Shown in pieces: positions 2,021-30,063 of a stretch of DNA of 64,000 nucleotides. The position numbers were made by a program, and so were the translations under genes. Every line of letters starts with the position of its first letter. Position 1 is the stretch's first letter. The notes under the pieces are model-generated. The model ran no database searches, was not told where the DNA came from, and was given only the letters and a program-made list of their open reading frames with translations. This DNA comes from Candidatus Nomurabacteria bacterium (GTDB taxonomy: Bacteria > Patescibacteriota > Minisyncoccia > Phycocordibacterales > UBA9973), in NCBI GenBank assembly GCA_025361085.1, contig JANYAX010000036.1, positions 7,208 to 71,207 on the forward strand, given 5' to 3'.

Positions 2021-2154
2021 AGTATGGCTTCTTTCCGAATAGCTCTTCCCAGAGGGTACGAAAATTTTTTGCTAAAAATTTTCTCGGTTCTCGCTCCGTC
2101 GAGCTCCAAAGCCCCTCTGGTAAGACTATTCAGAAATACGCCTACAATACAACT

Positions 2155-3245: not shown

Positions 3246-3276
3246 CTCCAGATAGTGGCAAGGCCACTATCTGGAG
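3246..3276. repeat. Perfect palindromic hairpin CTCCAGATAGTGG-CAAGG-CCACTATCTGGAG, 3 nt after dnaJ stop; member of a 2-copy family (second copy 20186..20218)
   Basis: 27-nt core ccagatagtggcaaggccactatctgg identical at both loci; outer stem bases differ but stay complementary (ctc/gag vs ccc/ggg); no U-tract follows. Confidence 0.6.
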
Positions 3277-3363
3277 GAGGGAAAACCTTTACTTATCGCT
3301 CATTTTTGCTATGATTGTTAATATTATTATTTATTACAGGTCGTAGACCTGATATATAAAGAG

Positions 3364-4755
3364 ATGAATAAAAGTTCTAAGGCTGCAAAGAAGCTCTGGA
3401 AAATTGGTTCTAAAGATTTCAACACTCAATATTTTGATTACAATAAAGAGGGTGATTTAATTATTAAAGAAGGACACAATATTTATAATGTTCGTTATTT
3501 GGCAGAGAAATTCGGCACTTCACTAGAAATTCTCATGCCTTTTGTTATTGAGGAGAGATTAGAAGATTTTCTAGATCTTGCCGCGGCCATATCAAAGAAA
3601 GTAGAATTTAAAGGTAAATTCTTTTATAACTACCCGATGAAGGTCAATCAAAGCAAGGAGATAGTCATGTCTGTTGTTGGTGAAGGAGCACACCTTGAAA
3701 CGTCATCATACAATGAACTTTGGATGGTTAAAAAAATGCTAGAACAAGAAAAGTTCAATCCGAACATTCGTATACTTTGTTCAGGTCCAAAAACTGATAG
3801 CTATATAAATCTTATCGATGAATTACAACATAAAGGTGTAAAAATTTTTCCTTTGATCGAAGGACCAAACGAATTAAAGTTTTTACAATATTCTAAATAT
3901 GATGTCGGTATACGTCTCGATATCCCAGTGAAAGCAAGTTCTAGATGGAATAAACCAGTAGACAGATTTGGTTTCTCAGCAAAAGAAATTTTGGACATGG
4001 GATCGTTTAAGAATTTGAAAATTCTTCACTATCATGTTGGATCGCAAATTGAAAAACTTAATGATGTTTTGATTCCGATTAAATATGCGCTTGATGTTTA
4101 CTTCAAACTCAAAGAAAAAAATCCATCGCTTGATACTCTTGATATCGGAGGAGGGATGCCGATACCTTACGAGAGAACAAAAGGTTATCCTGTCGAAAAG
4201 TTAATGGAAAGAATACTTAAATTAGTCAAAACAGAATCAGAAAAGCGCGGGCTTCCACATCCAAATTTGATTTGTGAATGGGGTAGATATATGGTTGCTC
4301 CAGCGCAAATTACAGTTTACAAAGTTATTGATACAAAAAGAATAAAACATAAAGCCAGTCCTGCCACAAAATGGTATGTTATTGATGGTAGTTTTATGAA
4401 TGATCTTCCAGACACTTGGGCCATCGATCAAAAATGGGCAATTGCTCCTGTAAATAATAAAAGAGACGGTAATCTAAATGAAGTTTGGCTTGCTGGCTCC
4501 TCCTGTGATTCTGATGATATATATAAAGGATTGAAAGAAACTCTCACCTTACCAGTATTCGATATGAACGGTGAAAATGACGGTGCTGGACCAATGTATA
4601 TTGTTGTGTTTGATACAGGTGCTTATCAGACATCTCTTGCTGCACAACATTGCATGCTATCATCACCGATGAAAATAGTGGTAGAAAATGGCCACATCGT
4701 CGTTGTAAAAAAACGTGAGTCAGCTGAAGATGTTGGTAAAACTTTCGGATGGTAA
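3364..4755 (+). CDS. PLP-dependent group IV (alanine-racemase fold) basic amino acid decarboxylase; likely arginine decarboxylase given neighbours
   Basis: 463 aa; YPMKVN PLP-lysine region, GGGMP, HYHVGSQ, EWGRY, CDSDD motifs typical of the Orn/DAP/Arg decarboxylase family. Confidence 0.7.
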   Translation: MNKSSKAAKKLWKIGSKDFNTQYFDYNKEGDLIIKEGHNIYNVRYLAEKFGTSLEILMPFVIEERLEDFLDLAAAISKKVEFKGKFFYNYPMKVNQSKEIVMSVVGEGAHLETSSYNELWMVKKMLEQEKFNPNIRILCSGPKTDSYINLIDELQHKGVKIFPLIEGPNELKFLQYSKYDVGIRLDIPVKASSRWNKPVDRFGFSAKEILDMGSFKNLKILHYHVGSQIEKLNDVLIPIKYALDVYFKLKEKNPSLDTLDIGGGMPIPYERTKGYPVEKLMERILKLVKTESEKRGLPHPNLICEWGRYMVAPAQITVYKVIDTKRIKHKASPATKWYVIDGSFMNDLPDTWAIDQKWAIAPVNNKRDGNLNEVWLAGSSCDSDDIYKGLKETLTLPVFDMNGENDGAGPMYIVVFDTGAYQTSLAAQHCMLSSPMKIVVENGHIVVVKKRESAEDVGKTFGW

Positions 4756-4796
4756 TTAATTAGGTTCTAGTACCTAGTTTCTAGGAGTTAGAAAAA

Positions 4797-4904
4797 GGGG
4801 TAGCATTATGAAAAATTATGAGTAGGTGTGGGCGCGCCGGAGCCTCGAGTGTACTCACGAGAGGTGGAGAGGGATAAGCGAATAATTTTTCATAATGCTA
4901 CCCC
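4797..4904. repeat. GC-rich approximately 66-nt core flanked by perfect 21-bp inverted repeats (GGGGTAGCATTATGAAAAATT / AATTTTTCATAATGCTACCCC); candidate structured RNA or MITE-like element
   Basis: Inverted repeat read directly; core gagtaggtgtgggcgcgccggagcctcgagtgtactcacgagaggtggagagggataagcg is far more GC-rich than its surroundings and contains the internal hairpin CTCG-AGTGTACTCA-CGAG. Confidence 0.5.
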
Positions 4905-4941
4905 TTTTATTATAAAATCATTGTGATAAAATATATACATT

Positions 4942-5961
4942 ATGAATACAAATTTAAACACTTTAGAATTTATTCTAAAAAATTATAAGAATTTCAATGC
5001 ACGTGCGACGAAAGACGCAACTATTTCGTATTGGCGTCATATTGAAAAGGGTGGAAAAATGTTTTGGGCCATGGGTGGGGCGATGTCTTCTGCTCAGCTT
5101 GGAATAACACTTGCGCCTGCAATCCGAAGTGGTTTGATTTCGGGAATGTCTGTGACAGGAGCGAACCTCGAAGAATCACTCTTCCGTCTTGTTGCTCACA
5201 AGAGTTACAAAGATTTTCCTGATTATCGATATTTTACTAAAGAAGATGACACAAAAATTCTCGAAGACCGCATGCGTCGCGTGACAGATACAAGTATCCC
5301 AGAAGATGAAGCATTTCGTGTTGTCGAGAAACAAATTGTCCCTACTTGGAAGACAGCCACAGTAGATGGCACAAGAAAGTTTTGGCATGAATATTTCTAC
5401 GAGCTTATTCAATCGATTGATAAAGAAAAGCACGAAGGAAGTGCCGATGAATGTTGGTTACTTGCAGCAGCCGAGAAAAATATTCCAATTGTAGTTCCTG
5501 GATATGAAGATTCAACTTTTGGAAATATTTTTGCTTCATATGTAAAGACTGGTGAATGCAGTGCAAATATTGCAAAATCCGGAGTTGAATACATGTGTGC
5601 TTGGTATGACCAATATCAGAAATTATCCGAAGGTCAGGGTGTCGGGTTCTTCCAAATTGGTGGTGGTATATCTGGGGATTTTCCAATCTGTGTAGTCCCT
5701 TCTATCAAATATGATCTGCAAAAAGATGTTAAACCATGGGCATATTTCTGCCAAATTTCTGATTCGACAACTTCATATGGTTCATATTCAGGGGCAACTC
5801 CAAATGAGAAAATTACTTGGGATAAACTTACAAAAGACACTCCAATGTTTGTCATCGAATCCGATGCAACTATCGTCGTTCCTCTAGTACTAAATGCACT
5901 TATGGAATGCCAAGCAAACCCAGCTGAAGCAAATAAATTAATAGAAAAGTACACAGCATAA
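4942..5961 (+). CDS. Deoxyhypusine synthase-like protein (DHS family; possible aminobutyl transferase / homospermidine-type synthase)
   Basis: 339 aa, DHS-typical length; VTGANLEES resembles the DHS VTTAGG-EED NAD-region motif; sits between a decarboxylase and an agmatinase-family gene. Confidence 0.6.
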   Translation: MNTNLNTLEFILKNYKNFNARATKDATISYWRHIEKGGKMFWAMGGAMSSAQLGITLAPAIRSGLISGMSVTGANLEESLFRLVAHKSYKDFPDYRYFTKEDDTKILEDRMRRVTDTSIPEDEAFRVVEKQIVPTWKTATVDGTRKFWHEYFYELIQSIDKEKHEGSADECWLLAAAEKNIPIVVPGYEDSTFGNIFASYVKTGECSANIAKSGVEYMCAWYDQYQKLSEGQGVGFFQIGGGISGDFPICVVPSIKYDLQKDVKPWAYFCQISDSTTSYGSYSGATPNEKITWDKLTKDTPMFVIESDATIVVPLVLNALMECQANPAEANKLIEKYTA

Positions 5962-5973
5962 ATAATTTTTGAA

Positions 5974-7026
5974 ATGGACAACAAAAAAATTATAGAAAAA
6001 AAAATATCAAATTTTAACCCAAATGAAAGTGGTGAACTTCATGAGGGAATTTTTGGTTTGCCATTTAGTGTAAATGAATCTAAATTAATTCTTGTACCGG
6101 TGCCATGGGAAGCAACAACTACTTATGGTGATGGAGCCTCATATGGTCCTAAATCAATATTAGAAGCCTCACAGCAAATAGATTTATATGATTCAATATA
6201 TCCAGATGGTTGGAAGGAGGGAATTGCGATGCAAGATATTCCGATGAATATATTTAAAAAGAGTGAAGAAATTGGCGAAAAGACAAATGAATATGTAAGA
6301 AAATATAACGAAAGACAAATTGATAAAACATTACAAAATGAAATAAATAAAGCGGGTGAAGAATTAAATAAATATGTTAAACAAGTTACTTCCGATTTTT
6401 TAAATAAAGACAAGATTGTTGGAGTTATTGGAGGGGAACATAGTGTTCCACTTGGGTATATTGAAGCTTTGTCAGAAAAATATGAAGATTTTGGTATTTT
6501 GCACATTGACGCACATTCTGATCTCAGAGAAGCATATCAAGGTCTTACTTATTCTCATGCGTCTATATTTTATAATGTTTTAAAAATTAAAAATGTCTCT
6601 AGTCTTGTTCAGTTCGGTGTTCGAGATTTTTGTGAAGATGAATTCAATCTTATTCAAAAAAATGAAAAACGTATATTTCTTTTCACTGATTATGAAATAA
6701 AGAAAAAAATATTTAGAGGAACGACAATAAAAAAAGAATTTAATGAAATAATTAAAAAACTTCCCCAAAATGTATATGTCTCTTTTGATATCGATGGCCT
6801 TATTCCTTATCTAAGTCCTAATACTGGTACGCCTGTAGTGGGTGGTTTCACTATTGAAGAAGTTGTCTTTTTGATTGAAGAAGTTGTTAATTCTGGTAGA
6901 AAAATAATAGGCTTTGATTTGTGTGAGGTTTCCCCAGGAGAAAATATCAATAATAAATGGGATGGAAACGTTGGGGCAAGAGTTTTGTATAAGCTTTGTC
7001 AGCTTACATTAAAAAGCCAGAAGTAG
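5974..7026 (+). CDS. Arginase/agmatinase-family ureohydrolase (agmatinase-like)
   Basis: 350 aa; Mn-binding motifs GGEHS, HIDAHSDL, SFDIDGL..P..GTP characteristic of the ureohydrolase family. Confidence 0.75.
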   Translation: MDNKKIIEKKISNFNPNESGELHEGIFGLPFSVNESKLILVPVPWEATTTYGDGASYGPKSILEASQQIDLYDSIYPDGWKEGIAMQDIPMNIFKKSEEIGEKTNEYVRKYNERQIDKTLQNEINKAGEELNKYVKQVTSDFLNKDKIVGVIGGEHSVPLGYIEALSEKYEDFGILHIDAHSDLREAYQGLTYSHASIFYNVLKIKNVSSLVQFGVRDFCEDEFNLIQKNEKRIFLFTDYEIKKKIFRGTTIKKEFNEIIKKLPQNVYVSFDIDGLIPYLSPNTGTPVVGGFTIEEVVFLIEEVVNSGRKIIGFDLCEVSPGENINNKWDGNVGARVLYKLCQLTLKSQK

Positions 7027-9667: not shown

Positions 9668-10579
9668 ATGATTCCAGAATTTCCAAACTTTAAGAAGTTA
9701 GAATTATCTGATAAAGAAGAAATTGAAAAATTTGTATCTAATTTTCCACCTTATTCCGCTTTTAATTTTATTAATTTATTGATCTGGGATATAAAAAATA
9801 CACGTAAAATATCAAAATTAAATGATAACCTGGTAATATTTTTTACTGATTATGAGACAGATGAACCGTTTTTGTCTTTTTTGGGAAATAATAAATGCAA
9901 AGATACTATTTTAAAACTTGTTAGTTTTGCTCAAAAGGAAAAGATATCTACTAAACTTAGATTTATTACAGAAGAAATTATTTCTCAAATAAAATCTGAC
10001 AATTTAAATATTGAGGAAGATCGTGATAATTTTGATTATTTATTTTCTCCGTTTGAATTATCAAATTATACGGGAATTAAATTCAAAAAACATAGACATC
10101 TTGCCAAAAGATTTTTACAGGATTATCCAAATGCTATTTTTAAAATAGAAAATTTAAATAATGAAAAAAATAAAAATGATATTCATTCTGTATTGCGTAA
10201 ATGGGAGAATGGTAAAAAATTAGAAAATAAATTTTGTAATTTAAGTTACGAGGAGAAAGCTATTGATAACCTATTAAAAAATATTAGTGACAAAAAATTG
10301 ATTTTATCATATGTGCTTATAGATAACAAAATGATAGGATTCAGTATTGATGAAATATTACCAAATGAGGTCGTAATATCACACTTTGTTAAAGCCGATA
10401 ACTCTTTTAGGGGAATATATGAATTTTTAAATAAAAAATTAGCCAGTTATTTATTTACTTTAGGCATTAAAACATGGAATTGGCAACAAGATTTAAATAT
10501 TAAAAATTTAAGAGAGACAAAATTGGGATATAGACCTGTTTCTTTTTTAAAGAGATTTAGCGTGTCGTACAAGATTTAA
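9668..10579 (+). CDS. Hypothetical protein, possibly DUF2156-like (MprF C-terminal, GNAT-fold aminoacyl-transferase-like) domain
   Basis: 303 aa; N-terminal PPYSAFNFINLLIWD resembles the DUF2156 signature as recalled; assignment weak. Confidence 0.35.
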   Translation: MIPEFPNFKKLELSDKEEIEKFVSNFPPYSAFNFINLLIWDIKNTRKISKLNDNLVIFFTDYETDEPFLSFLGNNKCKDTILKLVSFAQKEKISTKLRFITEEIISQIKSDNLNIEEDRDNFDYLFSPFELSNYTGIKFKKHRHLAKRFLQDYPNAIFKIENLNNEKNKNDIHSVLRKWENGKKLENKFCNLSYEEKAIDNLLKNISDKKLILSYVLIDNKMIGFSIDEILPNEVVISHFVKADNSFRGIYEFLNKKLASYLFTLGIKTWNWQQDLNIKNLRETKLGYRPVSFLKRFSVSYKI

Positions 10580-12764: not shown

Positions 12765-14120
12765 TTATAGTTTAGATATTTTTGATCCTGACTCTGTGTC
12801 TTTCACTTCGTAACCGAGATTATTTATTTTGTTTCTTATTTCGTCACTTTTTGCCCAATCTTTTTTCTCTCTAGCTTTTTCTCTTTCTTCGGCTAGTTTG
12901 TTTATTTCATCGGGGATTATTTCTTTTTGAATTTTATCTAATCCAAAACCTAAAACTTTATCAAAATTTAAAATTGTTGCGCGTTTATCTTTGATCGATA
13001 TATTTGTATTTTTTAATAATTCCCAGACAAGGGCAAGGGCTTGAGGGCTGTCTAGATTATTATCTAAATACTCAATAAATCGTGCCTTATACTCCATATT
13101 GACGACTCCAACATCCTCTCCAAGGGCTAAAAAGGCTTCTCTGAGACGCATAAGTGCGGTCTGGGCTCCTATTACTGACGTTATTGTAAAGTTCGTCCTC
13201 GTCGAATAATTCGAAGTATATAACCACAATCGAAAAGCAATAGGATCGATACCTTTCTTTATAATATCTTCTAGTGTGTAGAAATTACCAGCAGATTTCG
13301 CCATTTTGATTCCATCTACTAGAAGATGCTCATTGTGCATAAAATATTTTGCAAAATTTTTTCCAGTAGCACATTCAGACTGAGCTATTTCGTTCTCGTG
13401 ATGAGGAAAAATATTATCAACACCGCCAGTATGAATATCGAAGCTTTCGCCAAGATTTTTCATACTCATAGCCGAGCATTCGATATGCCAACCGGGGCGC
13501 CCTTTACCAAGAGCCGTTTCCCAAAATACGTTTCCATCTTCAGGAACCCATGCTTTCCATAATGCGAAATCTTCGGTATTATCTTTTTCGTATTCATCTC
13601 TCTTCATTCTTCCATCTGCGTTTTCTTTTAAATCTGAAAGTTTAAAATGTGAAAGTTTGCCGTATTCTTTGTCTTTATAAATATCAAAATATACAGAACC
13701 ATCTTCTGATTTATAGGCATAACCTTTATCTATCAAAGTTTGTATAATAACAACCATTTCGTTTATATAATCGGTTGCTTTAGTGTAAATATCGGCTGGC
13801 AATATATTCAGTAAATCTCGGTCTTTGAAAAATTCATCTGTGTAAAATTCAGTGAGTTCTTCTAAACTTTTATTTTGAGATTTGACTTCTCGAATGATTT
13901 TATCTTCAACATCAGTTATATTCATGATGTGTTTTACGTTGTATTTTTTATATTGAAGATATCTTTTCAATAAATCAGCAAAAATATACGCACGCCAGTT
14001 TCCGATATGAAGGTGATTGTAAACAGTTGGGCCACAAGTATAAAGACCAACTTCGCCCTCATTAATTGGTTCAAAAATTTCTTTTTCTCGTGATAATGTA
14101 TTAAATATTTGTAAAGACAT
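12765..14120 (-). CDS. cysS: Cysteinyl-tRNA synthetase
   Basis: 451 aa; HIGNWRAY (HIGH), KMAKSAGN (KMSKS), Zn-binding Cys; class I fold. Confidence 0.93.
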   Translation of the reverse strand: MSLQIFNTLSREKEIFEPINEGEVGLYTCGPTVYNHLHIGNWRAYIFADLLKRYLQYKKYNVKHIMNITDVEDKIIREVKSQNKSLEELTEFYTDEFFKDRDLLNILPADIYTKATDYINEMVVIIQTLIDKGYAYKSEDGSVYFDIYKDKEYGKLSHFKLSDLKENADGRMKRDEYEKDNTEDFALWKAWVPEDGNVFWETALGKGRPGWHIECSAMSMKNLGESFDIHTGGVDNIFPHHENEIAQSECATGKNFAKYFMHNEHLLVDGIKMAKSAGNFYTLEDIIKKGIDPIAFRLWLYTSNYSTRTNFTITSVIGAQTALMRLREAFLALGEDVGVVNMEYKARFIEYLDNNLDSPQALALVWELLKNTNISIKDKRATILNFDKVLGFGLDKIQKEIIPDEINKLAEEREKAREKKDWAKSDEIRNKINNLGYEVKDTESGSKISKL

Positions 14121-14652
14121 ATAAAATTATTATGACAATAATAGTAACTACCGCCCAAATCGTCAATGATTTTAATCGCTTATTATTTTTGATAATTTGT
14201 TCTCGAAGATTTTTGATTTTTGCGTCATGAGCGATTATTTGTTTATGAGAATTTACGTATAAACTTTTCAATAAATGAGCGAATAGCAATTTGTTGTCGC
14301 TGATACTTGCGTTGTTTTCATCCATAGTCCCAAGTTCCATTTCTTTCAAAAATGCACTTAAAGCTTGAATCGGTTCATTGTGAATACTGAAAATATATTT
14401 ATCACTTGCGATAAATATCAATTTATTATCAACGTTTTCGCTTTCTGCCACCTGCGGGAAGGAAAGAAATGCATAAATATAATCATTATATAATCTGATA
14501 ACATCGTCGTTCTTATTGGCTGACATCTCTTCTTTTATAATTGAAGGAATATTGTATTCTTCTAAAACGTAAGAAATCTCTGCATCTTTTGGAGCTTCCA
14601 GATCTATCCAAGCCAATTCTTTGTGACTATATTTTGATATCATAATGCCCAT
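14101..14652 (-). CDS. Hypothetical tail-anchored membrane protein (overlaps cysS start by 20 nt)
   Basis: 183 aa soluble domain plus single C-terminal TM; no family recognised. Confidence 0.35.
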   Translation of the reverse strand: MGIMISKYSHKELAWIDLEAPKDAEISYVLEEYNIPSIIKEEMSANKNDDVIRLYNDYIYAFLSFPQVAESENVDNKLIFIASDKYIFSIHNEPIQALSAFLKEMELGTMDENNASISDNKLLFAHLLKSLYVNSHKQIIAHDAKIKNLREQIIKNNKRLKSLTIWAVVTIIVIIILYVFTNI

Positions 14653-15760: not shown

Positions 15761-15879
15761 ATATTATGTCTATGCTTCATCAAAATATTCTTTTTTTCGG
15801 GTCCTCGGACGAGGGGGACGGGAGCCGGTGCCAGACCAGCTCAAAAAAGAACATTTTGATTTCGCTCATTTAATTAACA

Positions 15880-20155: not shown

Positions 20156-20185
20156 AACACAAATTTTATTAAAGAATTCCCAAAT

Positions 20186-20218
20186 CCCCCAGATAGTGGC
20201 AAGGCCACTATCTGGGGG
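20186..20218. repeat. Second copy of the CCAGATAGTGG-CAAGG-CCACTATCTGG palindromic hairpin, about 30 nt after aspS stop
   Basis: Same 27-nt core as 3248..3274; extended here by CCC/GGG. Confidence 0.6.
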
Positions 20219-20542
20219 ATTGACTTTATGGGTTTTGAGATGTAGAGTGAAAGAAAAATTCAAACATTAATTAAATTAACAACAAAATGTATCCTGCGCA
20301 GCCGCAAAAGAACTGGAGGCTGATGGATATATAATTTCAAATATTCCGAGGAACAACGATGGGATTAAAAATAGAATCTCATGGGTGTAATAATGATGGA
20401 CCGTCGCAATCAGCGACGGTTTTCATTTGAAAAAGTAACTCTCACGAAAATGTTTTGTGTATCAGACACCTAGCAAGGGGTGCCTTTTCTACCTTTCAGT
20501 GGCCTTTTTTATATTAAATTTGCGTGTTATAATTGAAAGGTA

Positions 20543-21824: not shown

Positions 21825-22604
21825 ATGTCTGAAATTGCTTCACAATATCAAATTAAACAGGGAACTTTCGAGGGGCCACTAGAGCTCCTACTTTCGCTTA
21901 TTGAACAAAGAAAGCTTTTTGTAAATGAGATATCGCTTGCCGAAGTTACAAATGATTATATCGCATATATTAAATCATTATCCGACGTTCCTAGCGACAA
22001 GCATATCGCGAATGTTTCGTATTTTATTTTGATCGCGGCAACTCTTATACTTATCAAATCAAAATCATTACTGCCCAATCTGGCGCTTACTGACGATGAG
22101 ACCGAGAAAATTTCTGATCTCGAGAATAGATTGAGGTTATACAAGGTTATAAAAAATGCGAGCGTTGAAATAAAAAATAATTTTGGAACGAAAATAATTT
22201 TCATGCCTAGTGAACGTATCTGGAGCGAGCCATTATTCTCACCAGATTCTACAATCACAATAAGTAGCATGAGCGATAGCATCAAAGATGTTCTTAATCA
22301 TGTTCCCAAAAAGGTTGAGAAGCTTCCTGAAATTGAAGTTAAGAAAATTATTAACATCGATGAAATAATAAATAGTCTGACCGACCGTATTCAAAATGCC
22401 ATGAATTTATCATTCAAAGCATTCACACAAAGTCAAGGTGCCGAAAATGTCGAGGAAGCAAAAGTCCATGTTATCGTTTCATTCCTTGCTATGTTAGAAT
22501 TGGTTAGAGAAGGAATAATAGACGTTATGCAGAATTCTTCTTTTGGAGATATAGAAATTAACAAACAACAAGTTCCCATAGGTCTGACCTATGGGCAGAA
22601 TTAA
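21825..22604 (+). CDS. scpA: Segregation and condensation protein A
   Basis: 259 aa; N-terminal FEGPLELLLSLIEQRKL typical of ScpA; followed by scpB. Confidence 0.8.
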   Translation: MSEIASQYQIKQGTFEGPLELLLSLIEQRKLFVNEISLAEVTNDYIAYIKSLSDVPSDKHIANVSYFILIAATLILIKSKSLLPNLALTDDETEKISDLENRLRLYKVIKNASVEIKNNFGTKIIFMPSERIWSEPLFSPDSTITISSMSDSIKDVLNHVPKKVEKLPEIEVKKIINIDEIINSLTDRIQNAMNLSFKAFTQSQGAENVEEAKVHVIVSFLAMLELVREGIIDVMQNSSFGDIEINKQQVPIGLTYGQN

Positions 22605-22634
22605 AAGAATAAGTCCATAGGTCAGACCTATGGG
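22575..22634. repeat. Two tandem copies of 21-bp perfect palindrome CCATAGGTC-N-GACCTATGG (22575..22595 inside scpA 3' end, 22614..22634 intergenic)
   Basis: cccataggtctgacctatggg and tccataggtcagacctatggg, 18 nt apart, immediately upstream of scpB. Confidence 0.55.
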
Positions 22635-22643
22635 AAAACAACC

Positions 22644-29765: not shown

Positions 29766-29963
29766 ATGACAGGAACAATCAAAACTCTTACAGATAAAGG
29801 ATTTGGGTTTATAGCTCGTGAAGGCGAAGCTAAAGATCTCTTCTTCCATTCCAAAGAGCTAGTTGGTGTTACTTATGATGAACTAAAAGTAGGCGACGCA
29901 GTCACTTTTGAAGTTACTCAAAGTGAAAAAGGCCCAGCTGCTACAAAAGTATCTCTCGCGTAG
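29766..29963 (+). CDS. cspA: Cold-shock protein (CspA family)
   Basis: 65 aa; GTIKTLTDKGFGFI RNP1-like motif, FFH RNP2-like motif. Confidence 0.88.
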   Translation: MTGTIKTLTDKGFGFIAREGEAKDLFFHSKELVGVTYDELKVGDAVTFEVTQSEKGPAATKVSLA

Positions 29964-30014
29964 TCAAAACTAAAAATACTCTCACTGTTATGTGAGAGTA
30001 TTTTTAGTTTTGAC
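29963..30014 (+). terminator. Very long perfect terminator hairpin (GTCAAAACTAAAAATACTCTCAC-loop-GTGAGAGTATTTTTAGTTTTGAC)
   Basis: 22-bp stem directly after csp stop; the track ORF 29992..30213 begins inside this hairpin. Confidence 0.65.
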
Positions 30015-30063
30015 TTATCTTTTTATAAGATGTAACATTAAGGAAACTAAAAAAGGAGGCCAA

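Follow-up and report, generated by a model that had tools for sequence, protein, structure and literature searches.

An intergenic hairpin with a near-invariant core and freely changing arms in a Nomurabacteria-like Paceibacterota bacterium

The hairpin behind the speA-like gene

The stretch of DNA analysed here (64 kb; hereafter the window) carries dnaK, dnaJ, a speA-like decarboxylase gene, a long hairpin, a deoxyhypusine-synthase-like (DHS-like) gene and an agmatinase gene, in that order (Table 1). Homologues of the DHS-like protein at 83-93% identity are named Candidatus Paceibacterota or Nomurabacteria, and the host is a Nomurabacteria-like Paceibacterota (CPR) bacterium. CPR bacteria, or Patescibacteria, have tiny, densely packed genomes in which, to our knowledge, almost no non-coding elements have been characterised. 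A sequence-only reading of this DNA had singled out a GC-rich island bounded by perfect 21-bp inverted repeats, placed after the decarboxylase stop and 37 nt before the DHS-like gene. Both distances hold (stop at 4755; ATG at 4942, 37 nt past 4904), and the repeat proves longer than was described. The 21-mer GGGGTAGCATTATGAAAAATT at 4797-4817 on the forward strand, with its exact reverse complement at 4884-4904, belongs to a perfect inverted repeat of 27 nt (4793-4819 and 4882-4908), and the whole hairpin measures 116 nt and begins 37 nt past the speA-like stop. The 62-nt core that it encloses is 63% GC in a window of 36% GC, and the CTCG...CGAG pairing noted inside the island falls within hairpin P3.

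The RNA fold of the hairpin has a free energy of -56.7 kcal/mol (z = -9.2), and none of 200 shuffled sequences was equally stable. Taken in isolation, the core folds no better than its shuffles (z from -0.5 to -1.6); the exceptional stability is thus due to the long stem. In the predicted fold, the core is a three-way junction of P1, P2 and P3 with two tandem G·A motifs. The 5' arm of P1 starts with an A-run and is GC-richer in its outer part, and its inner part consists of A and T only, except for one G. In the window there is no further match to GGGGTAGCATTATGAAAAATT with up to three mismatches (shuffle mean 0.01 matches).

Table 1. Coordinates of the hairpin, its neighbours and related elements. 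L numbers are our labels for loci outside the window.
Feature	Sequence	Position	Strand	Details
speA-like PLP-dependent arginine/ornithine decarboxylase gene	window	3364..4755	+	Pfam PF02784, PF00278
P1 closing stem, 5' arm	window	4793..4819	+	27 nt, AAAAGGGGTAGCATTATGAAAAATTAT, perfect complement of 4882-4908
Conserved G-rich core	window	4820..4881	+	62 nt; from RNA fold
P1 extension	window	4820-4823, 4878-4881		GA/GU with GC/GA; tandem G·A, then G-C, U·G
P2 hairpin	window	4825-4838		GGUGU GGGC GCGCC; from RNA fold
J2/3	window	4839-4841		GGA
P3 hairpin	window	4842-4865		GCCUC GA GUG UACU CAC GA GAGGU, with tandem G·A internal loop
Unpaired purine strand	window	4866-4877		12 nt, GGAGAGGGAUAA
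P1 closing stem, 3' arm	window	4882..4908	+	ATAATTTTTCATAATGCTACCCCTTTT; terminal T-run continues as TTTTATTAT
Putative extended -10 (TG-A-TAAAAT) of DHS-like gene	window	4924..4932	+	9 nt before ATG; read from sequence
TGnTATAAT-like box sites	window	4924-4944
TGnTATAAT-like box site	L007	~484-507
TGnTATAAT-like box site	L005	~6846-6867	-
TGnTATAAT-like box site	L028	14453-14478
TGnTATAAT-like box site	L032	13779-13808
DHS-like gene	window	4942..5961	+	Pfam PF01916
A1 copy	L004/L008			neighbours: methyltransferase gene and mnmA
A1 copy	L005 (CAZQOL010000008.1)			neighbours: CYTH and RNase J-like genes; upstream of the RNase J-like gene
A1 copy	L006			at contig end; one adjacent (downstream) gene
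A1 copy	L007/L026/L027			neighbours: M24 peptidase gene and TraG-like gene
A2 copy	L026	14672-14777		neighbours: HD and RNase J
speA-DHS spacer	L009			40 nt, no hairpin
speA-DHS spacer	L012	9892-9985		(TAATAAT)n tandem repeat
speA-DHS spacer	L014, L022-24			different GC-cored hairpin, family D
M24 peptidase-TraG-like slot	L026	9856-9971		A1
M24 peptidase-TraG-like slot	L005	6912-7018		family B
M24 peptidase-TraG-like slot	L028	14331-14475		family C
M24 peptidase-TraG-like slot	L032	13643-13805		family D nested inside another hairpin
M24 peptidase-TraG-like slot	L016	3172-3197		26 nt, no hairpin
Slot upstream of RNase J	L005; L026; L016-19			A1; A2; family B, respectively
Family B	window	2030-2150	+	dnaK-dnaJ spacer; three-way-junction hairpin, about 115 nt
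Family B	L009	7232-7352
Family B	L012	11008-11132
Family B	L005	6912-7018	-
Family B	L016	6885-6998
Family B	L026	19515-19625
Family C	L012	4381-4455, 7173-7248		hairpins of about 70 nt
Family C	L014	4521-4592, 7197-7268		hairpins of about 70 nt
Family C	L028	~14343-14412		hairpin of about 70 nt
Family D	window	15779-15860 (core 15797-15842)		18-bp AT-rich inverted repeats, one A·C / G·U position
Family D	L014	~9930-9975
Family D	L022	1802-1877, 2927-3002
Family D	L026	18052-18136
Family D	L032	~13678-13750
Long perfect hairpin	window	29962-30015		24-bp arms, 6-nt loop
Long perfect hairpin	window	22573-22636		22-bp arms, 20-nt AT-rich spacer
Terminator-type hairpin	window	3249-3280, 20183-20221		CCAGATAGTGGC-AAG-GCCACTATCTGG

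The hairpin has part of what an intrinsic terminator requires: GCUACCCC-UUUUAUUAU lies 38-150 nt past the speA stop, with a GC-rich base and a U-tract directly after it. With bidirectional Rho-independent terminators it shares the A-run, the GC-rich stem base, the T-run and a place between transcription units. Such terminators usually have a stem of 5-14 bp and a loop of 3-8 nt, whereas this stem is 27 bp long and closes a branched loop of 62 nt; a consensus scan for loops of 3-8 nt makes no call here. The hairpin also differs from them in that its core is shared with other loci.

A putative extended -10 box lies between the hairpin and the DHS-like gene. The same geometry, TGnTATAAT, then 7-8 nt, then ATG, follows the hairpin slots in four further loci (L005, L007, L028 and L032). 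If these boxes are promoters, the hairpin belongs to the 3' end of speA and not to the DHS leader, and the DHS-like mRNA would be near-leaderless, starting 3' of the hairpin. The position of the DHS promoter is one that we infer; a simple promoter scan was non-discriminating in this AT-rich region. Extended -10 boxes 7-9 nt before ATG suggest that leaderless mRNAs are common in these genomes.

Copies of the core at unrelated loci

An exact scan of 185,579 species genomes for a 22-mer of the core found two loci (L004 and L005), and a two-part core pattern found three in JGI metagenomes (L006, L007 and L008). L008 is the same locus as L004, and L026 and L027 are longer versions of L007. With the window, these make five A1 loci; one divergent copy, A2, brings the distinct members of family A to six. 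The hairpin is thus one copy of an undescribed family of intergenic modules in Nomurabacteria-like Paceibacterota. Each copy combines an AT-rich stem of 24-29 bp, free to change as long as it pairs, with a near-invariant G-rich core. The sequence-only reading had proposed a search for further copies: the inverted repeat is single in the window, while the core recurs at unrelated loci in other genomes.

Across the five independent A1 loci the core is identical at 60-62 of 62 positions, a range to be read with the bias toward identical cores that exact-match patterns, by which the A1 members were found, bring with them. The cores of L004, L005, L006 and L007/L026 are identical to each other, and the window copy matches them at 60 of 62 positions. 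Its two private changes are a C at 4854, in the P3 loop, and a U at 4865, which turns a G-C pair of P3 into G·U. All family A copies start with AAA, end in ...CCYY-TTT(T) and are GC-richer at the stem base. Because an A-run and a T-run flank that base, a transcript in either direction would carry the hairpin followed by a U-tract. The slots occupied by family A are positions between the stop codon of one gene and the next, putative promoter. In orientation, the window copy, the L006 copy (relative to its downstream gene only, at the contig end) and A2 are sense, and the copies in L004, L005 and L026 are antisense to both neighbours.

An ordinary intrinsic terminator of speA, evolved locally and without mobility, would account for a hairpin directly after the stop codon with a GC-rich stem base and then a T-run, and the genome holds other long perfect hairpins (for example at 29962-30015 and 20183-20221). 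We regard this account as very unlikely: a core identical at 60-62 of 62 positions at unrelated loci, in genomes whose genes are 70-77% identical, already contradicts it.

Family A appears sparse. In the incomplete genomes covered, the 64-kb window has a single copy and L026 has two members, divergent from each other, in 22.7 kb of sequence; the covariance model returned no further member from about 190-240 kb of related loci. The clade itself is abundantly sampled, with at least 120 SecY and at least 120 DHS homologues above 80% identity. The core had no match in viral, plasmid and phage collections, and two degenerate patterns found no viral contig. Logan contigs of the window organism hint at one more copy. 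Contig ends fall at 4848 and contig starts at 4824, breaks that in a k=31 graph would be produced by a second copy in the sample sharing exactly 4819-4853. This shared stretch would stop just before 4854, the position of the window-private C. The other end of such a Logan contig falls in the hairpin repeated at 3249 and 20183 of the window.

These breaks also bear on the idea of an invertible DNA switch, in which the 62-bp core would flip between the 27-bp inverted repeats. Perfect inverted repeats do flank a short segment, and from locus to locus the core faces either way with respect to the genes. However, no locus shows both orientations, and a k=31 graph of two alleles would be expected to break at 4819/4820 and not at 4848/4824. 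A segment of 62 bp is, moreover, very short for recombinase-mediated inversion, and no recombinase gene is adjacent at any locus. We consider such a switch extremely improbable.

The A2 copy was found with a covariance model (R1) built from four copies, at 52 bits; the rebuilt model (R2) scores it at 86 bits. It lies 4.7 kb from the first copy in L026. Its stem has 24 bp of new sequence with one G·U pair. P2 is retained through two single changes that each preserve pairing (U·G to C-G and G-C to G·U). P3 is shortened to GC-GA-GC-UU-GC-GA-GC, in which the tandem G·A loop is kept and both helices are altered, and the purine strand GGAGAGGGAUAA is kept at 12 of 12 positions.

The stems of the A1 copies are 27-29 bp long in every case, differ in sequence and always pair. 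In a four-sequence alignment, compensatory double changes occur in 19 of 27 stem pairs, and 99% of cells are paired, against 37-55% when the arms are slid. The five-member comparison gives 25 of 29 P1 pairs and 97% of cells paired against 37-54%, and the observed stem covariation was reached by none of 500 shuffles; these values come from an alignment (A6) fitted to the model, and DNA-level correction from arm to arm could also keep the arms matched. P1 thus carries the compensatory substitutions by which conserved structured RNAs are generally recognised, and the pairs of P2 and P3 are backed only by one-sided changes and by A2. All wobble pairs of the family are on the G-rich strand (4 G·U in P1; 5 positions in the core together with the P1 extension). 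This points to that strand, as RNA or as single-stranded DNA, as the folding species.

An invariant core within a heavily covarying stem is the classical signature of a functional structured RNA, for example a small RNA that acts in trans or derives from a 3'UTR, a decoy that binds proteins, or a new ribozyme. The core would then be under very strong purifying selection and the stem would need only to pair. The confinement of G·U pairs to one strand fits this explanation, as does A2, which preserves P2, the P3 tandem G·A loop and the purine strand. Purine motifs of the GGA type and the two tandem G·A motifs of the core are, in addition, features typical of protein binding. Against it, no conserved promoter lies upstream of the copies, the L004 copy is antisense to both genes and fills their 127-nt spacer, and the core alone is thermodynamically ordinary. 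A clade-wide RNA under strong constraint should be commoner than this element is, the element's location is non-syntenic even between related genomes, and Rfam holds no match. Overall, a functional RNA of this kind is a minority possibility, less probable than spread as a cassette, to which we return below.

Hairpin turnover in orthologous spacers

We fetched four related lineages with the same dnaK-dnaJ-speA-DHS-agmatinase order. Their DHS proteins, where measured, are 91-96% identical to that of the window; for the DHS genes, nucleotide identity is 81-85%. The family A element is absent from the orthologous speA-DHS spacers of all of them (L009, L012, L014 and L022-24), which hold the contents listed in Table 1.

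This distribution decides the fate of a further proposal in the sequence-only reading, that the island could be a cis-regulatory RNA. Control of the DHS-like gene by a riboswitch or attenuator that responds to agmatine, guanidine or a polyamine would suit a branched GC-rich fold within a speA, DHS-like and agmatinase cluster. The element is nevertheless missing from the same spacer in four related lineages that share the cluster, and an identical core lies beside mnmA, RNase J-like and TraG-like genes, often antisense. In addition, the likely DHS-like promoter is downstream of the hairpin. The suggested comparison with Rfam gave no relevant match at E values up to 10, where only hairpin-shaped miRNA models appeared, far below their thresholds; a scan of the whole window at gathering thresholds returned only two tRNAs. 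To ykkC/guanidine-I, -II, -III and other guanidine or polyamine riboswitches, the likeness is one of genomic neighbourhood, in this window only; the hairpin has no covariance-model match, no conserved gene association and the wrong place relative to the likely promoter. The riboswitch explanation is effectively refuted by the distribution of family A. The element is not part of the polyamine pathway, and a riboswitch for polyamines or guanidine is not an appropriate annotation for the hairpin.

Across five related genomes, the slot between the M24 peptidase and TraG-like genes is occupied by a member of family A, B, C or D or by 26 nt without a hairpin, a sign that hairpin modules are quickly replaced while their positions stay fixed. 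Upstream of RNase J, the slot likewise holds A1, A2 or B. At least four families of structured hairpins, each with a conserved GC-rich core and each absent from Rfam, thus rotate through the short spacers of CPR genomes.

Family B hairpins have an outer stem AAUAGCUCUUC...AAGACUAUU and a hairpin GCUC-CGUC-GAGC. They are always sense to the flanking genes, although the genes differ, and compensatory changes are seen in 23 of 38 predicted pairs among six sequences; Rfam contains no match. As a genuine cis-acting RNA motif, family B is a stronger candidate than the family A hairpin. Family C has conserved GCAGGATTATTAAAATTAT arms, is syntenic after grpE and after dnaK in two genomes, and shows compensatory changes in its core helix (CGCG/CGCG versus UCUC/GAGG). 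Family D resembles family A in combining a conserved GC-rich core with locus-specific AT-rich arms: the window copy, a second GC-rich island there, and the L026 copy have almost the same core, ...UCCUCGGACGAGGGGG(A/G)CGGGA(G/A)CCGGUGCCAGAC..., but the 25-bp arms in L026 are unrelated. Two family D copies with the same arms flank the DHS gene of L022, one on each side. We rejected a GAG...CGA junction as the signature of a superfamily; it occurs in the small L012 element but is lacking in its L014 orthologue and in A2.

One could envision that families A, B and D form a new class of structured-RNA cassettes that CPR bacteria exchange horizontally, with the three-way-junction core as an active RNA. 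The core, with its two tandem G·A motifs, GGGC loop and GGAGAGGGAUAA, could serve as a decoy for a protein or the ribosome, as a processing signal or as a ribozyme, and the sequence-free stem of about 27 bp could act as a processing or presentation stalk. If so, the element would be a mobile functional RNA, neither junk nor a mere terminator. We entertain this idea only tentatively and think it rather unlikely.

Proposed spread of the core and a possible role as terminator

The comparison of L005 with L026 is informative about how the core is inherited. Three genes shared by these loci are 70-77% identical in nucleotide sequence and 43-52% at third codon positions. The cores are identical at 62 of 62 positions, the arms at 12 of 27 (about the neutral level), and the elements sit in different slots. 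A core that is rare, and identical in diverged hosts, speaks for transfer rather than for ancient vertical constraint. Extreme vertical constraint would predict many exact matches, and moderate constraint would not give 62/62 at this divergence; horizontal movement of the core is therefore the best explanation. Between the window and L005, the inner 13 bp of the stem are identical and only about 4 of the outer 14 bp are shared, a pattern that suggests joint movement of the core and a short inner repeat. The recipient site may supply the outer arms, or these may diverge very fast under a pairing constraint or arm-to-arm correction. The hosts are related, though not closely. L005 is titled Candidatus Saccharibacteria, but we dropped the idea of a transfer across phyla: the SecY attributed to the L005 contig on matching length shares 85% identity with the SecY of L026, for which the named relatives are Paceibacterota or Nomurabacteria, and the gene order of L005 is likewise Nomurabacteria-like; the label is probably imprecise.

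A classical MITE, mobilised in trans by a transposase recognising terminal inverted repeats, was one of the two origins toward which the sequence-only reading had leaned. The element is small, has long terminal inverted repeats and no coding capacity, and is found at varied intergenic sites in different genomes and in both orientations. Two family members lie less than 5 kb apart in L026, and a second copy in the window sample would explain the contig breaks. However, the arms are unconserved (11-17 of 27 positions identical between family A copies) and the interior is invariant, the opposite of what MITEs show. Direct repeats next to the arms are lacking: target-site duplications are not visible beside the four complete copies, where element boundaries are uncertain since no empty site was found, the closest relatives being 77-85% identical in flanking genes with unalignable spacers. 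The scarcity of copies in the window and related loci, described above, also speaks against a MITE, and we saw neither matching IS ends nor a transposase, integrase or reverse transcriptase consistently near the copies. We therefore judge a classical MITE improbable. The broader idea of a terminator or mobile element is supported in spirit by a terminator slot, a GC-richer base with A/T tracts and a sporadic distribution.

Family A has several parallels among known intergenic repeats. REPINs and REP-BIMEs of Pseudomonas and E. coli are intergenic hairpins of about 100 nt in which two inverted arms of about 25 nt surround a spacer; they lie at gene 3' ends in either orientation and are credited with terminator and mRNA-stabilising effects. 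Family A is like them in size, arm-spacer layout, place and likely effect. In REPINs, though, the arms (REP) are conserved and recognised by RAYT and the spacer varies, whereas in family A the spacer is invariant, the arms vary and the copy number appears low; among neighbours in about 250 kb of loci we found no RAYT or transposase-like domain. Correia elements (CREE/NEMIS, Neisseria), ERIC, RUP, BOX and the RPE of Rickettsia are small, non-coding, palindromic intergenic insertions that are co-transcribed and form long hairpins. Repeats of this Correia-type or MITE-like kind can supply terminators or promoters, and their presence varies between related strains. Size, place and likely effect are again alike, but we find in family A none of the hallmarks of Correia elements: conserved terminal repeats of 26 bp, a duplicated TA target and copies numbering in the hundreds.

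Insertion sequences that target palindromes (IS1397/ISKpn1 into REP loops; the IS110/IS1111 family) provide a third comparison, in which a conserved insert lies between the halves of a host palindrome. Palindrome-targeted insertion would account for outer arms that differ by locus around an invariant core, as seen in the nested family D element of L032. The insertion sequences just named are full-length elements with transposase genes, whereas the family A core has 62 nt and no such gene was found nearby; we know of no 62-nt derivative of hairpin-targeting IS elements.

The reading that we favour, held with about as much confidence as doubt, is that a horizontally spreading hairpin cassette occupies the speA terminator slot, where it probably serves as an intrinsic terminator in both directions or as a 3'-end hairpin. 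What spreads between related genomes would be the core, accompanied by no more than a few inner pairs of the stem, and it would land in, or create, long palindromes. The resulting hairpin would be tolerated or kept as a factor-independent, U-tract terminator that could work in either orientation and could also protect 3' ends; in the window, both effects would serve the speA transcript. The invariant core may be the part recognised by putative machinery, a factor whose existence we infer. Several observations count against this proposal. Intrinsic terminators do not typically enclose a branched loop of 62 nt, and a simple scan for terminators makes no call. Wobble pairs confined to the G-rich strand point to a strand-specific folded species, which is hard to reconcile with a purely orientation-independent role. 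Lastly, the inner 13 bp common to the window and L005 suggest that some stem sequence travels with the core, against spread of the core only.

In conserving its interior and freeing its arms, family A inverts the logic of MITEs and REPINs and calls for an undescribed mechanism of spread or selection. Covariance model R2 is defined for a census of the family, and its members are candidate natural terminators for organisms that are newly becoming genetically tractable.

Several other identities were considered and rejected. The motif order and required nucleotides of known small ribozymes (hammerhead, twister, HDV-like and group II domain V), and those of SRP RNA, 5S loop E and the box C/D k-turn, do not fit by eye, and Rfam agrees. 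Small ORFs (MKNYE-stop in the 5' arm and a 12-aa ORF on the reverse strand) are unconserved in L004, L007 and L006. AscI and XhoI sites in the core raised the question of a synthetic or vector origin, which we rejected: the core matches nothing in plasmids, phages or full-text sequence strings, and independent assemblies (NCBI, JGI, ENA and Logan) place the element in different genomic surroundings. As for the stem as an anti-phage guide, 18-mers of two stems each match one IMG/VR contig, at about the chance level expected for a collection of that size, and extending to 19 nt only.

Other hairpins of the window are built differently. Two long perfect ones have no GC-rich core: that at 29962-30015 adjoins tRNA-Leu, and that at 22573-22636 has internally palindromic arms. 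The terminator-type hairpin present twice in the window has differing outer pairs in its two copies, and a Logan contig of the window organism starts exactly within the first of them.
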